Shown here: piece after piece, positions 16,614-58,957 of the stretch | Numbering within the stretch: the first letter of the stretch is position 1 | Layout: each line of letters starts with the position of its first letter | Assembly: GCA_965219565.1 (NCBI GenBank) | Contig: OZ244780.1 | Span: 1,006,287-1,070,286 of the forward strand | Length of the DNA stretch: 64,000 bases | Source of the DNA: Dehalococcoidia bacterium | GTDB lineage: Bacteria; Chloroflexota; Dehalococcoidia; Lucifugimonadales; JAGWBF01 | Direction of reading: 5' to 3' | The notes under the pieces: generated by a model | Database searches by the model: none | What the model saw: only the letters and a program-made list of their open reading frames with translations | What the model was told of the DNA's origin: nothing | Made by a program: the position numbers and the translations under genes

Positions 16614-16705
16614 GGAGGGATCGCATAGTGGCCTAGTGCGGGCGCCTGCTAAGCGCTTAGCCTGAGAAATCGGGCTCATGGGTTCGAATCCCATTCCCTC
16701 CGCCA
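16614..16705 (+). tRNA. tRNA-Ser (anticodon GCT)
   Basis: Acceptor GGAGGGA/TCCCTCC, anticodon loop CT-GCT-AA, long variable arm, GGTTCGAATCC T-arm and an encoded CCA. Confidence 0.9.
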
Positions 16706-22902: not shown

Positions 22903-23901
22903 ATGAATAGGGCTGGAATGGTAATATACCACGGCATCGGCGGCGGCGCTGACCTCCGGGAATACGGGCGTATAGCAGATGACCTGGGCTACGACTCCTT
23001 GTGGGTCACCGAGCGTTACCTTCATGAAGAGACGGCGTCCATGCTGGGTTATCTCGCCGCGGCCACTTCCAGGGTCAAGCTGGGCGTCGGAGTGGTCAAT
23101 CCCTTCACCCGGCACCCGGCCCTGCTGGCGATGATGGCGGCCACTCTGGACCGCATCAGCGGAGGACGGTTCATCCTGGGCATGGGCCGGAGCGACAGCT
23201 TCATCATCGAAGATCGGCTGGGGATGTCCTATTCCCGGTCGCGAGGCAGGTTGGAAGAGGCTCTGACAATCGTCCGTGAGTTTCTGGAAAAAGGTTCAGC
23301 TTCCTATCAGGGCAGAGTATTCAACCAACCCGAGGTCAGCCTGGAGATGAAGCCAATACAGGACAGGCTGCCCATCTACATGGCGGCTATCGGTCCCAAG
23401 GCCCTGAAGACGGCGGGCGCCTTGGCCGATGGAGTTCTCTTAAACGCCTACGTCTCACCCGGGTACGTGAGGTACGCAGTGGGCCTGGTCAAAGAAGCTG
23501 CAAAGGAAGCGGGCCGGGACCCGAACTCGGTGCGCGTCGCCTGCATGTTGGTGATGCGCATGACGCCCCGCCCGGAGGAAACCCGTCCCGGACTAAAGCA
23601 GAGACTCGTGCGCCTCTATTCCGAGGCCCACGTAGGGGAGATTCTCCTGGAGACTGCCGGATTCGACCCGCAAACGGCCTCGCGGCTGCGGGTCCTGTAT
23701 GAAGAGGGCGACATGAAAGGTGCAGTGGGGCTTGTCACCGACGACATGGTGGACTCATGCTACGTCATTGGACCGCCGGAGCAATGCAGGGAACGGGTGG
23801 AGGAGTACGTGAGGGCCGGTGTGGACGAACCGTTGCTGCTTCCCAGGTTGGAGGACTACCAGGGTGTGGCAAAGGCCATGGCCCGGGCCCTACGACCATA
23901 G
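22903..23901 (+). CDS. LLM-class flavin/F420-dependent oxidoreductase
   Basis: LGYDSLWVTERY and VVNPFTRHPALLAMMAATLDRISGGRFILGMGRSD. Confidence 0.85.
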   Translation: MNRAGMVIYHGIGGGADLREYGRIADDLGYDSLWVTERYLHEETASMLGYLAAATSRVKLGVGVVNPFTRHPALLAMMAATLDRISGGRFILGMGRSDSFIIEDRLGMSYSRSRGRLEEALTIVREFLEKGSASYQGRVFNQPEVSLEMKPIQDRLPIYMAAIGPKALKTAGALADGVLLNAYVSPGYVRYAVGLVKEAAKEAGRDPNSVRVACMLVMRMTPRPEETRPGLKQRLVRLYSEAHVGEILLETAGFDPQTASRLRVLYEEGDMKGAVGLVTDDMVDSCYVIGPPEQCRERVEEYVRAGVDEPLLLPRLEDYQGVAKAMARALRP

Positions 23902-23998: not shown

Positions 23999-26023
23999 AT
24001 GAATGCAAATATGAGTCTAGTCGTGAAACGTCTTACCGTGAGGTTTCTGGCGGTCATCATCTTGGCGTTAGCAACTCTTGGATTGGCGGCCTGCGGCGCC
24101 GACACTCCGGAGGCATCCGATAGTTCCGACCAAGAATCATCGGACCATTTTGTAGGCCGTGTCTCAATATATACCGTTCGCCATGAGGGTATCTCTTATA
24201 GGCCCGTCGCTGGCCCGATACGAGAGGAACTGCTGGATCTGGATCGTTTGACGCCGACCGGACTGGTGCTTGGTGACAGCGACCAAGAGCTGGTAAAAGG
24301 CAGCGAAGGGCGGAAGGTCTTCACATTGTCTGGAGTGCCCATAGAACAAGGGTTCTTGGTGCGTTCCAACGATAGGGGGTATGGGCCTGACGTCAAATGG
24401 GGGACAAAAGCAACATCATATCCGGTCTGCCAGTCTGGGTCGGGCGCCTATGTGTACACCGCTAAGGGCGCCTCGCCCTCGCCTCGGTGGATCCCGTCTC
24501 GCGGACCGGCCTATCCCGGCGGACCTACTCCCACGCCGGTCCCTACTCCCCCCAACGTACCCATCGTCGCCACAGCTTTATCGGCACAGGGGTTGCTGGG
24601 CGTAGGCTGGCCGGTTGTGAACATGGAACGCCTTCAGTTCGGATTTCGGGGAGTCGAATACTTATTTACCGCTTTTCGTTCCATAAACGAGCATGGGGCG
24701 GACTCATCCATCTCTTCTGCCGAAATCGAGGAGCTGGAAACCCTGTCCATAACCTACTTTATCGACCTGGCGCCGTTGCCGGCTCCCGCACTGGAGGAGA
24801 TAACTTCGGATGGCACGGTAACAGACCACGTGCGGGTCTATCGTCTCGAAGACCGACCCGCCGGCGAAGTAATCGTGGTCGACCAATGCCCGGCAGACCT
24901 CCAAGGCGACCAATTCTCCTATTTTCAGCCGACCCAGGCGGCGACTCATTCTAACAATGGCGACTCTCCTCCGGTCCCCACTTCTACACCAGAGCCCTTG
25001 CTGCCCGGCGGCACGTCTAGGGCGCCGGACCACGTCAGGCTCGACCTCGATGACGGAGTCGTGGTTGCTTTCGCCGCTGACCCGAGTCTCGGACGGATAG
25101 CGTATGTCACCCACGTACCATCGGGCGCCCAGGTTGTACTCGACCGGGAAGGCAAGGTGATTGAGCGGCACGACCCTCCAGGGGTTGACAGCGATTTGCT
25201 TGACGCGACATTAGAGGACAGCGACGCCATGACGAAGATCCGGCGAGGTCTACAGTACGAGGGAGTCCTGGTTAGGGACCCCATCAGAAGCTGGATCAAC
25301 GCTATCCACTTCGAAGGCGCTTCATACTACCCGGCGTCGGAAGGCGCCGATGGCGTAGCAACTGGGGAGGTGGAGCTAGACCGATCCGAGCTAGGCCCGG
25401 TCATCTATTGGGTAGCTTTCTGTCTTAGCTGCAACATCGACCTGCCAATGGGCTACCAGGTCCAGGACGGCGATGCCACTCTCCTAGACCCGGGCACTGC
25501 CGTATACAGCGTTAACGGCTACGATCCTTCGGAGCGGGTGGCCGTCATTGTGGATGGCGAAGTGTTGTTGTACGACAAGTTCGAACCCACCCCTCCGATT
25601 ATAACTCCGACCCCAAGCTTCAAGCCCACTGATCCCGAGGCTTCAAGGAGACCATCCTCCGACAAGTACTCCGAAGAGGAGCAGCAACTACGAGCCGTTA
25701 TGGGCAACTTTCCAAGTGACGAAATAGTCTGGATCGATGGAGACACCGTTGTATATACACTAGCCCGAGACCCTCACGCCTATTATCACAACCCTCCCGA
25801 TTTTTCCAAGGGGTTCATAGCGGTTGCTCAGCATCTTCCTACGGGAGCGACCAAGGCCTACGCCCTATCCAGCGAGGCCGCCTCTGATACGGGCGTGAGG
25901 AGGGTTGAAGCCATCGATGAATATGCAGGCGACCACCCCGAGGGTAAAGAGGTCTTAGACCGAATGCAGCGGGACCCTAAGGTAATCGGTGCGGTCACCA
26001 AGCTTCTACGAAGGGTGGAATGA
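23999..26023 (+). CDS. large lipoprotein of unknown function with three related internal modules
   Basis: Signal peptide plus lipobox LGLAAC and Pro-rich linkers. I recognise no domain. The stop overlaps the next start (ATGA at 26020-26023). Confidence 0.7.
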   Translation: MNANMSLVVKRLTVRFLAVIILALATLGLAACGADTPEASDSSDQESSDHFVGRVSIYTVRHEGISYRPVAGPIREELLDLDRLTPTGLVLGDSDQELVKGSEGRKVFTLSGVPIEQGFLVRSNDRGYGPDVKWGTKATSYPVCQSGSGAYVYTAKGASPSPRWIPSRGPAYPGGPTPTPVPTPPNVPIVATALSAQGLLGVGWPVVNMERLQFGFRGVEYLFTAFRSINEHGADSSISSAEIEELETLSITYFIDLAPLPAPALEEITSDGTVTDHVRVYRLEDRPAGEVIVVDQCPADLQGDQFSYFQPTQAATHSNNGDSPPVPTSTPEPLLPGGTSRAPDHVRLDLDDGVVVAFAADPSLGRIAYVTHVPSGAQVVLDREGKVIERHDPPGVDSDLLDATLEDSDAMTKIRRGLQYEGVLVRDPIRSWINAIHFEGASYYPASEGADGVATGEVELDRSELGPVIYWVAFCLSCNIDLPMGYQVQDGDATLLDPGTAVYSVNGYDPSERVAVIVDGEVLLYDKFEPTPPIITPTPSFKPTDPEASRRPSSDKYSEEEQQLRAVMGNFPSDEIVWIDGDTVVYTLARDPHAYYHNPPDFSKGFIAVAQHLPTGATKAYALSSEAASDTGVRRVEAIDEYAGDHPEGKEVLDRMQRDPKVIGAVTKLLRRVE

Positions 26024-27789
26024 TCTACGAACGTAACAAAGGGTTAACTAGGAGACGTTGCATGGTGGGGCTTCTGATGGCCATGGTCTTGGGACTGGCT
26101 ATCCTTGCACTGGTGGCGTGCAACTCCGGCGCGACGCCGATGACCAGTCAGCCGACGAAGACTGAGGAAGCGCTTGTCTCCAGCTCCTTCGTCAACTCCT
26201 GCGCCTACCGCGCCCCGGAGCCTACCCCTACGCCAGACCTGACGCCGCCGACGTCCACGCCATTCTCAAACATTACTCCCATCCCCTACCCGACAGAAAG
26301 GCCGTCGGCGGATGTTGTTGCCTACCCCGATCTGCCGTCGCCCGCGCTGCCGGCCCCCGTCAAAGCCTGGCAGGACGCCGTGGTGCGCGTGACCGTCGAA
26401 CTGGCCAGCGGCCGCATTCGACACCAGCAAGGGCTGGTCGTCGCCGATAAAGCCGTGCTCACCGTGCTTGACCTTACGGAGGAGACCGCTTCGTTGTCTG
26501 TGGACGTGTCCCGACTAGGCGCCTTCGCCGGTGAGCTTGAGCGCTTCGACCCCCGCACCGGCGCTGCGCTGATCACCGTTGGGGCTGAGGGCTTGACCGT
26601 GGCGCCTGGTGAGCGCACGACTGTAGCCCATGGTGAGCCAGTGTTGATTCTGAACCGTGACCGGGACTCCGGCGATCTCGTAGTGGGAGAGACCTTCGCC
26701 AGCCCCAGTCTCAACGCGCCGGACCATATCTTCGCACTGCGCACGGACTACACACGCCGCGCCCAACGGGGCGCGACAGTGGTCACGGGCGACGGCACAC
26801 CCGTTGGCCTCGCGGGTTACGGGCGGCGATGGTATGGCCACGGCGGGCCGGTCGTTTTTGGCCAGATTGGCGGTACGGACCTGCCGGCTGTGCTGTTCGA
26901 CTCCGCGTTCCGGCTGCTGGAGCTCGCGCCCCCGGATGCGGGCATCACCCCCTCCGCAGTCGCCTACCACGGGGCGGGTCGAGGTCGGCCAGTGGACGGA
27001 CCGGTGACTCGAGAGCTATTGGGAGAGCCTGTTCGGGCAACGCTTAGGGGCCTAGGAGAACCGGTTCTACTGGAAAACCTTGGGCGGCACCCGGGATACG
27101 TGCTCCGGTTTAAGTCAGGCACGATGCTGGAGTTGCTCTACGCCGCGCCCCAGGAACTGCGCGGGGCCGATCGAGAACTACTGGGCAGCGCGCGGTACAT
27201 CGTGCTCTGGTGGGCCAGAGAGGGCGGCGTTCCCGACCTCGTCCTCTGCGGCACAGACAGAGAACACCTAGGAGCCGCCTTTGCCGCCCGTGACCTGCGC
27301 TTGTTCGAGGCGTTCATGGTGAGAGCGCCGTCCAGTTCGCCGGACTCGATGGTATCCGCCGCCCCTCTCGACGCGCCGGAGTATGGATACTCCGGTAAGT
27401 ACGGCTACTCCAGTGAGGACTACCAGTACCCCTTCGAGTGGGAGCTGAAGACCGACAAATTGGCATACGTGCAGGATGAACCGGTGGCACTGACCTTCAC
27501 GCTCACCAACGCCAGCGATTGGCCCGTGCCTCTGGACTACGTGCCGCCGAGAGTGGTTATTCACAGCCTTCAGGAACACCGAGACGTGGCTGTGCTGGGT
27601 TACGGCGACGGGCGCCGCGTCCTGCAACCCGACGAGACCGCTTCTTTCACCATGACCTGGGACCAGATGCACTTCGAGGGCGGGCGGGCTCCGGCGGGAC
27701 GCTACGTCGCACATGTACACCTGGCCAACGTCGCGGACAACTGGTTGCTGACTCCGGGGCCGACAGCCTATGATGTGATATTGGAGTAG
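26020..27789 (+). CDS. lipoprotein: Pro/Thr linker, trypsin-fold-like domain lacking the catalytic triad, C-terminal BsuPI-like domain
   Basis: Lipobox LALVAC. The segment AVVRVTVE...GLVVADKAVLTVLDL...FDPRTGAALITV...RGATVVTGDGTPVGLAG follows the HtrA/S1C pattern, but the His, Asp and Ser positions are substituted. The C-terminus DEPVALTFTLTNASDWPVPLDY...ETASFTMTW...GRYVAHVHL resembles the intracellular proteinase inhibitor fold. Confidence 0.7.
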   Translation: MIYERNKGLTRRRCMVGLLMAMVLGLAILALVACNSGATPMTSQPTKTEEALVSSSFVNSCAYRAPEPTPTPDLTPPTSTPFSNITPIPYPTERPSADVVAYPDLPSPALPAPVKAWQDAVVRVTVELASGRIRHQQGLVVADKAVLTVLDLTEETASLSVDVSRLGAFAGELERFDPRTGAALITVGAEGLTVAPGERTTVAHGEPVLILNRDRDSGDLVVGETFASPSLNAPDHIFALRTDYTRRAQRGATVVTGDGTPVGLAGYGRRWYGHGGPVVFGQIGGTDLPAVLFDSAFRLLELAPPDAGITPSAVAYHGAGRGRPVDGPVTRELLGEPVRATLRGLGEPVLLENLGRHPGYVLRFKSGTMLELLYAAPQELRGADRELLGSARYIVLWWAREGGVPDLVLCGTDREHLGAAFAARDLRLFEAFMVRAPSSSPDSMVSAAPLDAPEYGYSGKYGYSSEDYQYPFEWELKTDKLAYVQDEPVALTFTLTNASDWPVPLDYVPPRVVIHSLQEHRDVAVLGYGDGRRVLQPDETASFTMTWDQMHFEGGRAPAGRYVAHVHLANVADNWLLTPGPTAYDVILE

Positions 27790-29348: not shown

Positions 29349-29652
29349 CGTACCAGCCTCCGCTATTTGCTCTTGTTGACTCTTAGCACACCTTAACAAT
29401 CGAATATTAATAATTTGTTTAGGAATGCTAGGATTTTGCCGGATCTTCTCGGGAACTGGCCCCGGAAGGATATTTCGGGCCAAGGTGTTGAGAATATCAG
29501 CACATTTGTACTAGGGTCAACGTTGCGGCGTCACCCCCCTTGCGGCTGGCTCATTGCGAACCGTTCTCAGGGGAGTTATCATGCAGGCAAGTGACTCAAC
29601 GGTCCGGATACGACCGGGCAGCGGCCAATCTGGGCAGGCTCAGGAGGCCTCC

Positions 29653-30579
29653 ATGAGCATACGTGTAGGGTACATGCCGGGCGGCTATCCCGCCGGTGAA
29701 GAGGGGAAAAGCCATCTCAAGCGCCTGGTGGAAGTGGGAGACGAGTATGGCTATGACTCGATATGGCTCTCTGACAGGGTGGTTGGGGAGAGGTTCAGCC
29801 CAGAGCCCATGATTGCCATGGCCATGGTCGCCGGATACTCACAGACCCTCAAGTTCGGCACGAGCGTGCTGCAGCTTCCCATCCGGAGTCCCGTAGTGCT
29901 GGCCAAGGAGATGGCAACTCTGGACTATCTTTCCGACGGCCGGTTTCTGCCCGCCATCGGGCTGGGCCAGGAAGACCCCCGGGAGTACGAGGCCTGCGGC
30001 GTGTCTAAGGCAGACCGGGGCAAGCGCACCGACGAGGCTATGGAGGTCATGCGCCGGCTCTGGCACGAGGACAACGTGACCCACGAGGGACAGTTCTACA
30101 CCCTCCATGATGTGACTGTCACCCCCAAACCCGTGCAGGAACCTTCCCTCCCCGTTTGGGTTGGGGGCCGGAGCAAGGCGGCCCAGCGGCGGGTCGGACG
30201 AGTCGGGGACGGATGGCTGGTTTCCTTTGCCACTCCCGACGAGGTGGCGCAGGGCATCGAGGTGGTGTTTGAGACCGCTGGAGAGTACGGACGGAGTGTG
30301 GACGAGGACCACGTGGGGGCCCTGATTGGATTTTACATCGCACCTAGTAGAGAAGAAGCCGAGGAGCGGGCCGAGGGTTACCTGACCCGCACTCGTGACG
30401 ACGCCCATTTCACTGAATACACGGCTCTGGGGCCGCCTGACGAGGTCCGTGGCCTGGTGCAGCAGTACCTGGAAGCGGGCGCATCCAAGTTCGTGGTCAG
30501 GCCCACCTGCCGGCCGGAGGAGACTCTGGAGCAGCTGGAGCTATTTGGCAAAGAGGTCCTCCCCGACTTCCACGGCTAG
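29653..30579 (+). CDS. LLM-class F420-dependent oxidoreductase
   Basis: YGYDSIWLSDR, LQLPIRSPVVLAKEMATLDYLSDGRFLPAIGLG and PKPVQEPSLPVWVGG. AGGAGG RBS before ATG 29653. Confidence 0.85.
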   Translation: MSIRVGYMPGGYPAGEEGKSHLKRLVEVGDEYGYDSIWLSDRVVGERFSPEPMIAMAMVAGYSQTLKFGTSVLQLPIRSPVVLAKEMATLDYLSDGRFLPAIGLGQEDPREYEACGVSKADRGKRTDEAMEVMRRLWHEDNVTHEGQFYTLHDVTVTPKPVQEPSLPVWVGGRSKAAQRRVGRVGDGWLVSFATPDEVAQGIEVVFETAGEYGRSVDEDHVGALIGFYIAPSREEAEERAEGYLTRTRDDAHFTEYTALGPPDEVRGLVQQYLEAGASKFVVRPTCRPEETLEQLELFGKEVLPDFHG

Positions 30580-42681: not shown

Positions 42682-42757
42682 GGGCGGTTAGCTCAGTGGT
42701 TAGAGCGCCTCGTTCACACCGAGGAGGTCAGAGGTTCAAATCCTCTATCGCCCACCA
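42682..42757 (+). tRNA. tRNA-Val (anticodon CAC)
   Basis: GGGCGGTTAGCTCAGTGGTTAGAGC D-arm, anticodon loop TT-CAC-AC, GGTTCAAATCC T-arm and an encoded CCA. Confidence 0.9.
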
Positions 42758-42788
42758 TTAATACCGGGGACATGCCCCTGTAGAACAA

Positions 42789-42875
42789 GCCGAGGTGGCG
42801 GAACGGCAGACGCGCTGCGTTCAGGGCGCAGTGCCCCTTGCGGGCGTGTGGGTTCAAATCCCACTCTCGGCACCA
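42789..42875 (+). tRNA. tRNA-Leu (anticodon CAG)
   Basis: Class II tRNA with a long variable arm, anticodon loop TT-CAG-GG, GGTTCAAATCC T-arm and an encoded CCA. Confidence 0.9.
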
Positions 42876-42890
42876 TCGACAAGTCGGCAC

Positions 42891-42967
42891 GCGCTTGTAG
42901 CTCAGTTGGATAGAGCGCATCCCTGCGGAGGATGAGGCCGTGGGTTCGAGTCCCGCCAAGCGCGCCA
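42891..42967 (+). tRNA. tRNA-Arg (anticodon reads GCG)
   Basis: Acceptor GCGCTTG/CAAGCGC, anticodon stem CATCC/GGATG with loop CT-GCG-GA, GGTTCGAGTCC T-arm and an encoded CCA. Confidence 0.8.
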
Positions 42968-42980
42968 TTCTCTGTCGCCG

Positions 42981-43280
42981 CTAGCCCAGGAAGATGTAGA
43001 CGTCTGCGTGTGGGAAGGCCACTTCCACCGCTCCCTTAAGCCGGTCCCTCACTAAACGTCTGTAGCCGTCCAAAGGCTGCTCGACGTCCAAGTGGGAGCA
43101 CCTCTGGCCCCTCTGCTCGTCGGGGCAGATGTGGCCTCCCGTGGGGCCGTCCCAGAACCCCACGCAATGCATCGGGAAGAAGAAGGTCTCGGTGACGTTG
43201 CGCAAGTCAGCAACGATCTCAGTGGCCCGAAAGCCGCTGTCAGTCGTCACTGAGACGACTACTCTAGCAAGTTCAGCCAC
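42981..43280 (-). CDS. hypothetical protein (99 aa, His/Cys-containing)
   Basis: ORF only; no recognisable domain. Sits between two tRNA loci. Confidence 0.4.
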   Translation of the reverse strand: MAELARVVVSVTTDSGFRATEIVADLRNVTETFFFPMHCVGFWDGPTGGHICPDEQRGQRCSHLDVEQPLDGYRRLVRDRLKGAVEVAFPHADVYIFLG

Positions 43281-43314
43281 GCTGTCTCACGCCCCCGTCG
43301 ACGGGACAGGCGGG

Positions 43315-43482
43315 TTAGCCGCCCCGGAATAGCTTGTTCCGCTCACCGTCTTGGCATTCTTTGTTGGTGCAGAACCAGAAGATGGTAGGCATTGGGGGCG
43401 TCCTGACGCCGTCCCTCTCTCTGCGCATGGGCTGTTTGCAAGTCGGGCAGACGCTTGAACCTTGAGCGCTTTCAGATGACAT
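43315..43482 (-). CDS. hypothetical small zinc-ribbon protein
   Basis: CPTCKQPM...FWFCTNKEC four-Cys arrangement. Start is uncertain (ATG 43482 or 43521). Confidence 0.4.
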   Translation of the reverse strand: MSSESAQGSSVCPTCKQPMRRERDGVRTPPMPTIFWFCTNKECQDGERNKLFRGG

Positions 43483-43635
43483 GGAATCTCCCGGGAGGTT
43501 ATACCTGGAATGTTCTACCATCCCAGCCTAGTGTGTTGCAAGTGTACAGTCGGCCCCGCGTCTCCAACTGGTACCGTCTCCGAGAACTTTGGACTCCACT
43601 CGAGGATTCGAAATAATTACCCCCTGAGATTACGG

Positions 43636-43641
43636 TATAAT
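43636..43641 (+). promoter_or_regulatory. possible -10 box (TATAAT) for tRNA-Val(TAC)
   Basis: Perfect TATAAT 14 nt upstream of the mature tRNA 5' end. No good -35 element seen. Confidence 0.3.
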
Positions 43642-43654
43642 ATATCGTCGCTCC

Positions 43655-43731
43655 GGGCGGTTAGCTCAGCCGGTTAGAGCGCCTGCTTTACACGCAGGAG
43701 GTCAGTGGTTCGAGTCCACTACCGCCCACCA
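43655..43731 (+). tRNA. tRNA-Val (anticodon TAC)
   Basis: GGGCGGTTAGCTCAGCCGGTTAGAGC, anticodon loop TT-TAC-AC, GGTTCGAGTCC T-arm and an encoded CCA. Confidence 0.9.
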
Positions 43732-46847: not shown

Positions 46848-48047
46848 TCAAGGGAGGGGAGCTTGTTGGTAGGGCTGTAGCTTAATCTTGTGTAAGGCCG
46901 GGATAACCTCTCTGCCCATCAGCTCTATGGAACGCATGACGTCCTGCTGGGTCATATCGCCCTCGGCGCCCCAGGCATGGAGGTAGCCTGGGTTGAGGCG
47001 GTTTATCACCTCTGTCAGCTTCTGGATGACTGTGTCCGGGCTGCCCACCACGATGCTGTTAATTTCCTGGAGCTCCTCGTAGCTGGCGGTCTGGCCGCCA
47101 AGGCCGCCAGAGGGCCTGTTACGCTGTATCTTCACCGCTTCCCGGGTCTGGTAACCCGGAGGGTCGACATGTTCCCTCGGCCCCTTGTGACGGTGTGGCC
47201 CAGTCCACATGAAGGTGCGGCCGATCTCTTGGGCCTTGGCGTCAGTGTCGGCCACCAGAACCTTGATCGTATAGCCAAAGTGCTGAGGCCCGGGCTGGAA
47301 GCCGACCTCGTTGGCCGTGTCTATGTATATGTTCCTCAGCCACTCGGTGGTGTCGAGCCGGGCCCCCTGGTTCATGTAAGGGTGGCGGTGTTTGGCTGCC
47401 CAAACCACGCTCTCCGGGCTGGAAAGCCCCGGGAACCAGATCTCTGGATGGGGTTTCTGCATGGGCAGCACCCAGGGGTTCACCATCCGGTAGTGGAAGT
47501 AGCGCCCCTCCCACCTGAATGGACCCGGCGTGGTCCAGCACTTGAGAATCAGATCGTGGGCTTCTTCGAAACGGCCCCGGTTCTCTGAAGGGTCTATTCC
47601 TGCTTGAAGACTCTCGACAGGGGTGCCCCTTATAAAGCCTGCGATTATCCGCCCGCCGGAGTAGCAATCCAGCATAGCCACCTCTTCAGCCATCTTGATC
47701 GGATCGTTGATGGCGATGGGACTGCCCAGGATAGCTATCCTAACCCGCTTGGTCACCTTGGATATGACGGCTGCGTCCAGGTTGACCGATGGTTTCAAGT
47801 TGAAGTAAGAGGCGTGGTGTTCATTGGTCATGATGCCATCGTAGCCAACCTCGTCGGCCCAGGCATACTGCTCGTGGTACTGGTTGTAGAGCGCCGCCGC
47901 TTTCTGGGGGTCGAAGTGCGTGTTGGGGAAACCTAGACGCCCGGACTCATATTTCTCCAGGTCCTGTTCGCTGACATAGCTATTGGGCTGTTGGCAGAAC
48001 CAAAACACTTCCACCTTTTCTTTGGGCGCCGGCGCCTGATCAGCCAT
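46848..48047 (-). CDS. LLM-class flavin-dependent oxidoreductase (long form)
   Basis: VGYDGIMTNEHH and AILGSPIAINDPIKMAEEVAMLDCYSGGRIIAGFIRG. Start at MADQAP. Confidence 0.85.
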   Translation of the reverse strand: MADQAPAPKEKVEVFWFCQQPNSYVSEQDLEKYESGRLGFPNTHFDPQKAAALYNQYHEQYAWADEVGYDGIMTNEHHASYFNLKPSVNLDAAVISKVTKRVRIAILGSPIAINDPIKMAEEVAMLDCYSGGRIIAGFIRGTPVESLQAGIDPSENRGRFEEAHDLILKCWTTPGPFRWEGRYFHYRMVNPWVLPMQKPHPEIWFPGLSSPESVVWAAKHRHPYMNQGARLDTTEWLRNIYIDTANEVGFQPGPQHFGYTIKVLVADTDAKAQEIGRTFMWTGPHRHKGPREHVDPPGYQTREAVKIQRNRPSGGLGGQTASYEELQEINSIVVGSPDTVIQKLTEVINRLNPGYLHAWGAEGDMTQQDVMRSIELMGREVIPALHKIKLQPYQQAPLP

Positions 48048-48386
48048 TATTCCCCTTTCCTGATGGTACGATAATACAACACCAGACAAGATGACAATGG
48101 CGCTCGTCGCCACCGAACGGCCTCCCCGCGAAGACTGGGACCGGTCGAACCCGCGGGAAGGGAGCGCCCACCGAGCATAAGGGGCGCCGTTGAATTTTTG
48201 ACGGAACTGTCACGGCTTGCTACAATCGAGCGTGTGCCGTGGCCGGTGACAGATGGCGATCAGCGTGACCGCTCCGCCACGGCGCCGCGACCCCGTATGG
48301 GCATCAGAACTGGACTGCCGTAACAGCCGAGAATCACGCTAAAGGGTGCGCTTGTCCTTTGGTAGAAAATGGCGAGGAGGATTCCG

Positions 48387-49637
48387 ATGCAAATCGGCTA
48401 TTTTACGGAAGAACCCTGGGTAACAGAGAAGTGGGACCCGAAGTGGGGAACGGGCGTCCTTGTTACCAGCAACGAGGAATACGACCGTCATCTCGGAGCG
48501 CAACTCTATAACCGTTGGATTGACGAGAAGATTTACGCCGACGAAATTGGGTTCGACATTCTCATGAAGAACGAACACCACAGCGCTCCCTATTGCATGC
48601 AAGGCGTTACTAATGTCGAAGCCGCTATTCTGGCCAGAGTGACTAAGAAAGCAAAGATATTCTTGGGAGGCAACATTCTCCCCCTTTGGGACGACCCCCT
48701 GTGGCTAGCCGAGCAGCTCGCTATGATTGACCTAGTATCCTATGGGCGTTTGATTTCCGGTTGGGTAAGGGGAGTGGGTTCGGAGAGCTACTCCCACAAC
48801 GCCAACCCTTCTTATAACCGGGAACGGTTCGAAGAGGCGCACGAATTTATCGTGAAAACCTGGACCACTCCAGGGCCGTTCCGTTGGGAAGGGAAGCACT
48901 ATAACTATCGTTACGTCAATCCGTGGTCGTTCCCCTACCAACAGCCGCATCCGCCAATTTGGATTCCCGGGACCACCAGCCCGGAGACGGTAAGGTGGGC
49001 GGCCGAGCGGCGCTATCCCTACATACGGTTGTCCGGGCAGGGTCCGGAGCAGTCCGTGGATATGTTCGACCTGTACCGCGAGACGGCGAAAGAAGCCGGA
49101 TACGATTCCGGCCCGCAGCACTTGGGCTACATGCTTCACATTCATGTGGACGAGACCGATGAAAAAGCCGTGGAAGTGGGGCGAAAGCTGACCGAGGGCG
49201 TCCGGAGCCCATTCGACGCAACCACCCCACAGGACATCGCCGGCACGTGGTTGCCGCACCTCCCCGGACTCCAGTCGGCCGAAGCCCGGCGGTATGCGGC
49301 TGCGCGGCAGGTGCGACTTAGCACCGGCACTCCGGCCGGTCGCGGCAACTTGACCTGGGAGGACCAACTCGCCCGTCTCGCCTCAGTGGCAGGCACCCCG
49401 GAGACCGTGCTGCCGAAACTGCGCCACATCTTGGAAGTTATGCGGCCCGGGGTCTTGATTCTTCGCACCGGCGAAGGCACGATGACCCATGACGAAACCA
49501 TAAAGTCGTTAAAACTTCTGGGAGAAGAAGTTATTCCCGCGCTCAAGGAAATCGGCAAAGAACTCGGGCTTGACGGCCCCCTCGAGGTTGATCCGGCGAC
49601 AAACGAGCGCATCCCCGTTGAGGCCAACTCAAGCTAG
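48387..49637 (+). CDS. LLM-class flavin-dependent oxidoreductase (long form, divergent paralogue of 46848..48047)
   Basis: IGFDILMKNEHH and LGGNILPLWDPLWLAEQLAMIDLVSYGRLISGWVRG. GAGGAGG RBS before ATG 48387. Confidence 0.85.
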   Translation: MQIGYFTEEPWVTEKWDPKWGTGVLVTSNEEYDRHLGAQLYNRWIDEKIYADEIGFDILMKNEHHSAPYCMQGVTNVEAAILARVTKKAKIFLGGNILPLWDDPLWLAEQLAMIDLVSYGRLISGWVRGVGSESYSHNANPSYNRERFEEAHEFIVKTWTTPGPFRWEGKHYNYRYVNPWSFPYQQPHPPIWIPGTTSPETVRWAAERRYPYIRLSGQGPEQSVDMFDLYRETAKEAGYDSGPQHLGYMLHIHVDETDEKAVEVGRKLTEGVRSPFDATTPQDIAGTWLPHLPGLQSAEARRYAAARQVRLSTGTPAGRGNLTWEDQLARLASVAGTPETVLPKLRHILEVMRPGVLILRTGEGTMTHDETIKSLKLLGEEVIPALKEIGKELGLDGPLEVDPATNERIPVEANSS

Positions 49638-57283: not shown

Positions 57284-58957
57284 GTGATACAACTATCGAG
57301 GACGGGTCGGAATGTGCCGGGAAGGACTCCTGTGAGTAGGCTCTTGCGTCATTTCGCAGCGCTGGCGACTGGGGTTATAGTGTCTTTTGCCGCGGCTTGC
57401 TCCGGTACTGGTGAGCCGACCGGACCGGGCGAGAGCGCACCGACGGATTCACCCACACAGACCCCGACGGTTGCGCCGACCCTAACCGAAACGCCGGAGC
57501 CTACGGCAGCGCTCACCCCGAGCCAGCCGGATCTGACTCCGGCGCCTACGCCAGCGCTCACCCCGAGCGAGTCGGGGCTGACGCCGACTCCCGCGACGGA
57601 CTACGACTCCAACGAGAACATGTATCGGCTCTTCTCGGGCCGGGACCACAGCCCAGAGGAAACACACGAGGCCATCACACTGGCCGTTGCGAACAACGAC
57701 AAGTCGATGGTCCCGCTCTTGATCGAGATGCTCCGCTTCTTCGGGGACTGGGAGCTGGTGACGGAGACCAACACGGCCCTCTCGGTGATGACTGGCTGGG
57801 AGTTCGAGGACGACTCGGGGACGTGGAACGAGTGGATGGAGTGGCTGGGCAAGAACGCCGATGAGTACCGTCCCCCCGACGGGTACGTGCGGTGGAAGAG
57901 CGAGCTCATGAGCCTGATCGATCCCAGGTTCGGCGAGTTCCTGGCTCCGGCGGCGGAGGGCTCACGGATAAACGTTGCCGAGATCGCGTGGGGAGGCGTC
58001 CGGCCCGACGGGATCCCTGACCTTCAGAACGCCCCGATCCTTCCGGCGGGCGAGCAGAACTACCTGCAGCCGAGCGACCGGGTCTTCGGAGTGTCAATCA
58101 ACGGAGAGCACAGGGCGTACCCGCTTCGCATCGTGAACGCCCACGAGATGGCCAACGACGTGTTGGGGGGTGAACCCATAGCTCTGGCCTATTGAACCCT
58201 CTGTGGAACCGGAATCGTGTATTCTGCCAAAATCAACGGAGAGCCAACCACCTTCGGCACGTCGGGGATGCTATACCGCAGCAACAAGGTGATGTACGAC
58301 CGTCTGACCAACTCGCTCTGGAACCATCTCACAGGCGAGCCCGTCATTGGGCCGTTGTGGGACTCGGGTATAAAGCTCGACTTCTTCCCGGTCCTCCTCA
58401 CGACGTGGGAGGAGTGGTTGGAGCTTCATCCCGACACGACAGTGCTGGACCAGGAGACGGGCCTGTATCCCGCCGAATTCTACGCGCCAGAGGAGGACCC
58501 GCAGGCGATATACTACTCCTACTTCAACTCACCTGAGACGATGTTCCCGGTCCCTTACCGCGACGATAGGCTCGAAACAAAGGACGTTGTGCTGGGGGTC
58601 CAGCTGAACGACAGCTACAAGGCCTACTCCTCCGCAGGGCTGCTGAAGAGCCGGATCGTTAACGACGTGTTGGGAGGCGAGGAGATATTGGTGCTGGGGT
58701 CGGGCGCAAACCAGGGCGCGAGGGTCTACTACCGCACCGGCAGGTCGTTTAAGCTGGTGCCGAACGAAGGCGGCGAGTACTTCGGCATACCGTCGGTGAT
58801 AGTGGATACCGACAGGGGTATATGGCAGGTGACCGAGGAGTTTCTGGTCAACACGGCAGACGAGTCGGAGAAGTTCGCGCGGATACCCACGCACATGTCG
58901 TTTTGGTTCGGATGGTTCCAGTTCCACCCGGACACGGAATTGTACACGGGACCCTGA
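57284..58957 (+). CDS. DUF3179-domain lipoprotein interrupted by a single in-frame TGA (58193-58195): candidate selenoprotein, or a pseudogene
   Basis: Track ORFs 57284..58195 and 58217..58957 are in the same frame. Read-through gives ...GIPDLQNAPIL...VFGVSINGEHRAYPLRIVNAHEMANDVLGGEPIALAY-TGA-TLCGTGIVYSAKINGEPTTFGTSGMLYRSNKVMYDRLTNSLWNH..., a continuous DUF3179 core. N-terminal lipobox FAAAC and a Pro/Thr linker. Confidence 0.6.
58210..58226 (+). promoter_or_regulatory. candidate minimal SECIS-like hairpin
   Basis: CGGAAU-CGUGU-AUUCUG: 6 bp including one G-U pair, with a 5-nt loop containing GU. It starts 14 nt after the TGA. Confidence 0.25.

Follow-up and report, generated by a model that had tools for sequence, protein, structure and literature searches.

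A gene for a putative DUF3179 lipoprotein of Dehalococcoidia with a conserved in-frame UGA that is probably decoded as selenocysteine

This study examined a DUF3179 gene in a 64-kb stretch of DNA from a Dehalococcoidia bacterium (contig OZ244780.1; the whole stretch is referred to here as the window). An in-frame UGA at 58193-58195 of this gene is, judging from comparative sequence data, very probably decoded as selenocysteine (Sec). The UGA is conserved among related genomes and aligns with a cysteine of the homologues, translation continues past it, and a hairpin downstream of it is constrained at the nucleotide level. All coordinates are on the + strand of the window.

One reading frame across a conserved UGA

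The gene extends over 57284..58957, which corresponds to 557 codons from the first in-frame GTG, with Sec at codon 304. It is seen as two open reading frames (ORFs) in one frame, 57284..58195 (303 aa) and 58217..58957 (246 aa), separated by a single TGA (58193-58195) and then 21 nt encoding TLCGTGI. This arrangement had been described in a first-pass annotation of the window, and both its coordinates and its sequence were found to agree. From 58184 onward, the codons are GCT CTG GCC TAT TGA ACC CTC TGT GGA ACC GGA ATC GTG TAT TCT, and the peptide across the Sec codon is ...IALAY-U-TLCGTGIVYSAK. When Cys is assigned to the TGA, the joined translation matches PF11376 (DUF3179) with an E-value of 1.3e-74 and a score of 251.7 bits, for a cut-off of 27. 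The match runs end to end, residues 242-551 being aligned with profile positions 2-292 of 292, in keeping with the earlier proposal that the joined sequence is one uninterrupted DUF3179 core. The domain thus covers 58007..58936 and is interrupted by the Sec codon (58193..58195), which takes the first position of U-T-L-C (codons 304-307). Its resolving partner in the UxxC motif is the Cys codon TGT at 58202..58204, and the true stop at 58955..58957 is also a TGA.

The gene was compared within a set comprising the window, two metagenome contigs and 80 loci, with one genome per GTDB species. Nearly all of these 80 loci are labelled as metagenome-assembled genomes (MAGs) of Dehalococcoidia or Chloroflexota, and the identity of their domains to that of the window is 62-92%. 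TGA was found at exactly this codon in 91 of the 92 DUF3179 genes, including 11 second paralogues, and the sole TGC belongs to a divergent paralogue. The orthologues are divergent and differ in their flanks, which excludes copies of one contaminating sequence. The first-pass annotation had placed the TGA on the first Cys of a CxxC motif; this assignment is upheld by the corresponding column of 25 aligned homologues, which contains Cys in 20, Asp in 2, Ser in 2 and Trp in 1. Full-length homologues retrieved by protein search, with about 50% identity, read ...LAYCTLCG..., and a few family members have neither Cys of the motif (DVQT, SILV). The closest relatives (59-62% identity) are fragments of 328-340 residues, all ending in ...GGEPIALAY, and a further protein match begins with MYSARINGEPTTFG, which together form the signature of gene callers halting at the same codon. 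At the DNA level, the two fragment-bearing contigs show TGA followed by ACx CTC TGC, and one of the two metagenome contigs contains a second DUF3179 paralogue with a TGA at the same site.

Downstream of this TGA, the frame is open to a normal stop in 91 of 91 genes (TGA in 64, TAG in 17 and TAA in 10), and the partner Cys of UxxC is invariant in the 91 TGA-type genes, being encoded by TGC in 84 and by TGT in 7. The median ratio of nonsynonymous to synonymous substitution rates (dN/dS) relative to the window is 0.11 upstream of the TGA (77 codons) and 0.19 downstream of it (253 codons), so that the two checks proposed at the outset, on the codon in orthologues and on purifying selection downstream, both gave results in favor of an intact gene. 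Codons +1, +2 and +4 vary only synonymously, with Thr encoded by ACG, ACC, ACT or ACA, Leu by five codons and Gly by four. As changes in the seven codons after the TGA are only synonymous, the 21-nt "gap" must be translated. One relative was found to deviate at the Sec codon: P0108 (L085:3001-4329) has TGG (Trp) at this position, with a downstream hairpin of identical sequence.

A hairpin under synonymous constraint

The first-pass annotation had also pointed to a hairpin, CGGAAU-CGUGU-AUUCUG, located 14 nt after the TGA at 58210..58226, and this hairpin is present as described. It comprises a 6-bp stem (CGGAAU/AUUCUG) and a 5-nt loop, CGUGU, which begins 20 nt past the UGA; it would form the upper hairpin of a selenocysteine insertion sequence (SECIS). 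With regard to the 91 aligned sequences, the consensus structure predicted by RNAalifold consists of the hairpin C18-G-G-A-A-U23 [C-G-U-G-U] A29-U-U-C-C-G34 and nothing else. The pairs of this hairpin are kept in 90-91 of the 91 sequences, and both one-sided changes still pair as G.U. In the window copy, the second stem pair is such a G.U wobble, owing to its own C-to-U change at 58225. Pair 18:34 is broken (A/G) in one sequence, loop position 24 is C or A, and the adjacent pair 17:35 is GC in 17 sequences, CG in 9 and a CC mismatch in 56.

Counted from the U of UGA, third codon positions +18, +21, +27, +30 and +33 show little or no variation among the 91 sequences, whereas flanking synonymous sites are free to vary. 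Among 136 conserved codon columns with at least 3-fold degeneracy in an alignment of about 330 codons, the three lowest entropies belong to codons +6 (GGA in 90/91), +8 (GTG in 90/91) and +10 (TCC in 90/91), with 0.09 bits each for a median of 1.31. The Tyr at +9 is encoded by TAT in 91/91, although TAC is the preferred codon (68% in the window ORFs). These low-entropy codons and Tyr +9 coincide with the arms of the hairpin, which are therefore the most synonymously constrained part of the gene. In eight Cys-type paralogues from the same genomes, the arm codons for G-V/I-V/I-Y-S were found to be varied (GGC/GGA/GGG, GTC/GTG, TAC, TCC/TCG/TCT), and the one Cys-type paralogue that was folded showed no such hairpin.

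A lower stem, 58199-58204 with 58236-58241, was tentatively predicted by minimum free energy (MFE) folding, which would extend the putative SECIS to 58199..58241; it is without both-sided covariation. Over 82 distinct sequences, columns 7-11 pair with columns 45-49 in 93% of cells. Gly +15, for which GGC is the usual codon, uses GGA or GGG here, codons that can each pair with U8, and pairing in the lower stem may account for this avoidance of GGC.

The bacterial SECIS model requires a loop of 3-9 nt, a stem of 4-16 bp, a G within the first two nucleotides of the loop (G or U being its usual successor), a UGA-loop spacing of 16-37 nt and an MFE of at most -7.5 kcal/mol (PMC13188914). The hairpin agrees with four out of four published bSECIS criteria: its loop of 5 nt has G-U at positions 2-3, its stem has 6 bp, the spacing is 20 nt and the MFE is -9.7 kcal/mol. 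It shares with canonical bacterial SECIS elements (E. coli fdhF type, bSECISearch model) its position as a stem-loop inside the reading frame, a short way 3' of the UGA, the small loop with G-U at positions 2-3, the 6-bp upper stem, the 20-nt spacing and a probable lower stem. In contrast to these elements of E. coli, it displays no sequence similarity to them and no Rfam match. Taken with the constraint on its arms, these features support the earlier suggestion of a SECIS: the hairpin at 58210-58226 behaves as a SECIS element and would presumably be bound by SelB.

Selenocysteine and the alternative readings

Several results weigh against decoding as Sec. The 60-nt fold of the window copy (-9.7 kcal/mol) has a z-score of 0.24 relative to shuffled sequences and is thus no stabler than these. 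The shuffle controls were not significant, and compensatory covariation is absent, the hairpin core being near-invariant. The significance of the hairpin consequently comes from the comparative data only, as its thermodynamics alone are unremarkable. A search of Rfam around the site with permissive thresholds gave no match. At the protein level, no homologue was found in the PDB by sequence, nor by fold at E<0.2 when the AlphaFold2 model of the Cys homologue P0098 was submitted to Foldseek. Finally, no selA, selB, selD or tRNA-Sec turned up in the 64 kb of the window or in related loci totalling about 1.7 Mb; these loci amount to well under 1% of their genomes, so that the absence says little. 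This search relied on NCBIfam for 20 large window ORFs, on ARAGORN for the window and 82 loci, and on tblastn of E. coli SelA, SelB and SelD against the 1.7 Mb. An apparent SelA match was rejected as a DgaE-family lyase dependent on pyridoxal phosphate (PLP), below the cut-off, and an apparent SelD match as an AIRS/HypE-like protein. The tRNA genes of the window are a cluster at 42682-43731 (Val-CAC, Leu-CAG, Arg-GCG and Val-TAC) and a tRNA-Ser-GCT at 16614; none is a tRNA-Sec.

The absence of Sec machinery from the available DNA would also suit a UGA that is read through or recoded without selenium, by near-cognate insertion of Trp, Cys or Arg or by lineage-wide reassignment of UGA (as in genetic codes 4 and 25), and the TGG of P0108, with its hairpin intact, points in the same direction. 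Nevertheless, the contig of P0108 bears the tag "2x" in its name, probably indicating low read coverage, and its TGG may reflect a sequencing error or a mutation of recent date. Reassignment is ruled out by the use of TGA as a normal terminator, since it is the commonest true stop of the DUF3179 genes (64/91) and ends 12 of the 44 window ORFs, together with the lack of an in-frame TGA in any other window gene. As the site aligns with the Cys of CxxC, the hairpin fits the SECIS model and TGA also occurs within GrdB/PrdB and peroxiredoxin selenoprotein families of related genomes, we consider recoding without selenium to be very unlikely. The automatic gene calls correspond to another possibility, namely two separate genes encoding a 303-residue protein that ends at the TGA and a 246-residue protein that starts at GTG 58217. 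Such a split would cut a single Pfam domain and leave the second product without a signal peptide; moreover, the seven codons between TGA and GTG are conserved as amino acids with synonymous changes only, and the Cys-type homologues are single polypeptides. Two genes at this locus are therefore highly improbable.

The first-pass annotation had retained a simple TGY-to-TGA nonsense mutation as its alternative; such a mutation would leave a pseudogene or a truncated protein. A single base change would suffice to turn TGC or TGT into TGA, and gene callers do split the gene, public sets holding the 328-340-residue fragments that end in ...IALAY. Yet the same TGA is found in 91 genes from about 80 species, with downstream frames intact and no other disabling change, and selection (dN/dS of about 0.19) would not persist on a non-functional C-terminal half across such divergence. 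This alternative was accordingly abandoned, and we attach almost no probability to it.

Decoding as Sec is also in line with other genes of related genomes. In the flanks of DUF3179 loci of these genomes, conserved in-frame TGAs, each by a Cys, were identified in two classical selenoprotein families. The first is a GrdB/PrdB-type selenoprotein B (...LTST[U]PVC...), found in 8 loci, with a TIGR01918 score of 75 bits for a cut-off of 65; the Pfam GRDB model ends exactly at the TGA of this gene. The other is an AhpC/TSA peroxiredoxin (...FT(GG/DN)[U]...), found in 6 loci. In-frame TGAs of the PrdB/GrdB and AhpC/TSA genes are located at L023:18868 and L023:7112, and also occur in L025, L027-L030, L035, L036 and L054. 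They mark further selenoprotein genes, and such TGAs are usually called as stops. According to the BSepDB paper, the ten bacteria richest in selenoproteins include two MAGs of Dehalococcoidia, which have 46 and 49 selenoprotein genes; one of the two bears an isolate name of the same UUID style as many of the loci compared here. Dehalococcoidia that are positive for the Sec pathway are reported by BSepDB. A scan of the window for more selenoprotein genes gave no convincing candidate, the other same-frame pairs being adjacent separate genes, antisense to identified genes, or in some cases unexamined. The site at 58193 is the only spot in the window where a single TGA by a Cys joins two long coding-strand stretches with high G+C content at third codon positions.

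If the UGA is decoded as Sec by the standard bacterial pathway, the ribosome would reach the UGA and the hairpin at 58210-58226, probably extended by the lower stem (58199-58204 with 58236-58241), would recruit SelB.GTP.Sec-tRNA(Sec). Sec would then be inserted in place of termination, giving U-T-L-C (UxxC) where most homologues have C-T-L-C. The product would comprise a lipobox-containing signal peptide, a linker of Pro and Thr, a domain of helical repeats and the beta-rich DUF3179 domain, in which the selenol/thiol pair would most likely form a redox-active center or one that binds a metal or chalcogen.

Protein architecture, paralogues and known selenoproteins

The stretch 57284/57332-58957 is a single intact gene, whose DUF3179 product is predicted to be exported and lipid-anchored and would be located on the outward-facing side of the membrane. 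The likelier start is the GTG at 57332, as GGAAGGA precedes it at 57320-57326 and orthologues begin with MSRLLR... or VSRFLR.... A lipoprotein signal peptide, MSRLLRHFAALATGVIVSFAAA followed by C, was predicted by eye from the translation at 57332..57400, with the lipobox Cys at codon 39 (57398-57400). The window reads ...VSFAAA-CSG in this region and homologues read ...VVLA-CSG or ...AVA-CGS, following by eye the pattern ...A(V/L)AC(G/S); the Ala found at position -3 to the lipobox Cys in the window copy is atypical. The Cys that would be lipid-anchored is followed by a low-complexity linker rich in Pro and Thr (57401..57595), whose length and sequence vary among homologues. The next region, 57596..57990, has no Pfam match and is predicted to be an alpha-helical repeat domain from the model of P0098, which is 54% identical to the aligned window residues. 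This AlphaFold2 model has a predicted local distance difference test score of 90.7 and a predicted template-modelling (TM) score of 0.89, and it shows helices H2-H115 in the N-terminal repeat region (aligned region), then the beta-rich DUF3179 domain.

The U/CxxC pair is the only conserved Cys pair in the DUF3179 domain, and it likely serves an extracytoplasmic redox role or binds a metal or chalcogen. Foldseek gave weak local matches to Rieske-type ferredoxins and the NirD small subunit over about 90-120 residues, with target-normalised TM-scores of about 0.43-0.50 and probabilities of 0.4-0.8. In contrast to Rieske proteins, the model has no CxH/CxxH ligands; the E-values are at least 0.26 and the coverage of the model is partial, so these matches are not evidence of membership. 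It is conceivable, but in our opinion unlikely, that the DUF3179 proteins of Dehalococcoidia form a functionally new class of extracytoplasmic lipid-anchored selenoenzymes, in which a helical repeat is combined with a beta-rich domain that has no solved relative; their U/C-x-x-C pair might then bind a metal or chalcogen in a Rieske-like sub-fold or use a redox substrate outside the cell.

Many genomes contain one or two Sec-type copies beside a Cys-type copy, while the window contains a single DUF3179 copy. A second Sec-type paralogue (...GGEPISLVY[U]TLCGTGIVYSG...) was observed at L001:16853-18133 and also in L042, L043, L047, L066, L068, L069 and L071, lying some 4-6 kb downstream of the main copy. 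This paralogue shares the hairpin, here lengthened to 7 bp, and has a stronger two-stem fold of -19.6 kcal/mol (z=-2.4). A Cys-type paralogue (...LAQCVLCGSG...) lies directly upstream of the Sec-type gene in L017 (6429-9129) and in the equivalent regions of L013, L016, L031, L033, L034, L037 and L054. The Cys-type proteins, namely P0001 and P0009 (about 50% identity) and the CVLCGSG paralogues, have the same architecture and the same motif position as the window protein, but with TGC for TGA and with hairpin-arm codons that are free to vary. In L017, the Cys-type paralogue is directly preceded by a gene for a DgaE-family (SelA-related) PLP-dependent lyase, and by tblastn this lyase was detected in 8 loci upstream of the Sec-type gene (L017, L034, L037, L054, L072, L073, L076 and L079). 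DUF3179 genes are therefore repeatedly paired with a PLP enzyme related to SelA. The analysis of neighborhoods in about 80 loci revealed no conserved operon partner, the best being an ABC-type ATPase in 19 loci. One C-terminal fragment of a Sec-type DUF3179 protein, P0119 (325 aa), has about 80 residues duplicated exactly within it (SPDTMFPVPNRSPVLETKD...FAIGAEGS twice), which probably reflects an error of assembly or a tandem duplication of recent origin.

As for the rest of the window, the adjacent ORFs 23999-26023 (674 aa) and 26020-27789 (589 aa), both on the + strand, gave no Pfam or NCBIfam match. Four genes encode luciferase-like oxidoreductases of the LLM/F420 type (22903-23901, 29554-30579, 46848-48113 and 48369-49637), and the window also contains the cobalamin genes cobQ and cobB, a mitochondrial-type aconitase and several trp genes. 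We take this gene content to fit a marine or sponge-associated member of the Dehalococcoidia (SAR202-like).

The first-pass annotation had presented the gene as a candidate new selenoprotein. This does not hold for the family, as "DUF3179 domain-containing protein, pfam11376, UxxC/T" is listed among the prokaryotic selenoprotein families in a 2022 review by Zhang et al. in Biomolecules (PMC9312934), and the same UxxC/T entry appears in a 2026 review in Applied and Environmental Microbiology (PMC13188914). Both reviews credit it to Zhang and Gladyshev (2007, Nucleic Acids Research 35:4952), from the metagenome of the Olavius algarvensis symbionts. By family listing, the published DUF3179 selenoproteins and the window gene share the Pfam domain and the UxxC motif; the published examples MBW1804167.1 and MDJ0986319.1 are likened here by family and motif, not residue by residue. 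The Dehalococcoidia copies differ in that they carry in addition a putative lipoprotein signal, a linker rich in Pro and Thr, and an N-terminal domain of predicted helices. Our literature search on DUF3179 found no description of its SECIS or of the uniformity of the TGA across the clade.

Both the DUF3179 selenoprotein family and the richness of Dehalococcoidia in selenoproteins are thus already known. The present finding is of value for annotation: in public protein sets, two truncated "hypothetical proteins" stand for this gene and likewise for its orthologues from at least 80 species genomes of Dehalococcoidia, and merging them into one Sec-containing protein is warranted. To what was known, it adds the description of a SECIS, a 6-bp hairpin with the loop CGUGU at 20 nt from the UGA, which carries the strongest synonymous constraint in the gene. 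It also adds that the Sec form is near-universal in the clade and that the protein is probably exported as a lipoprotein and of uncharacterised fold.

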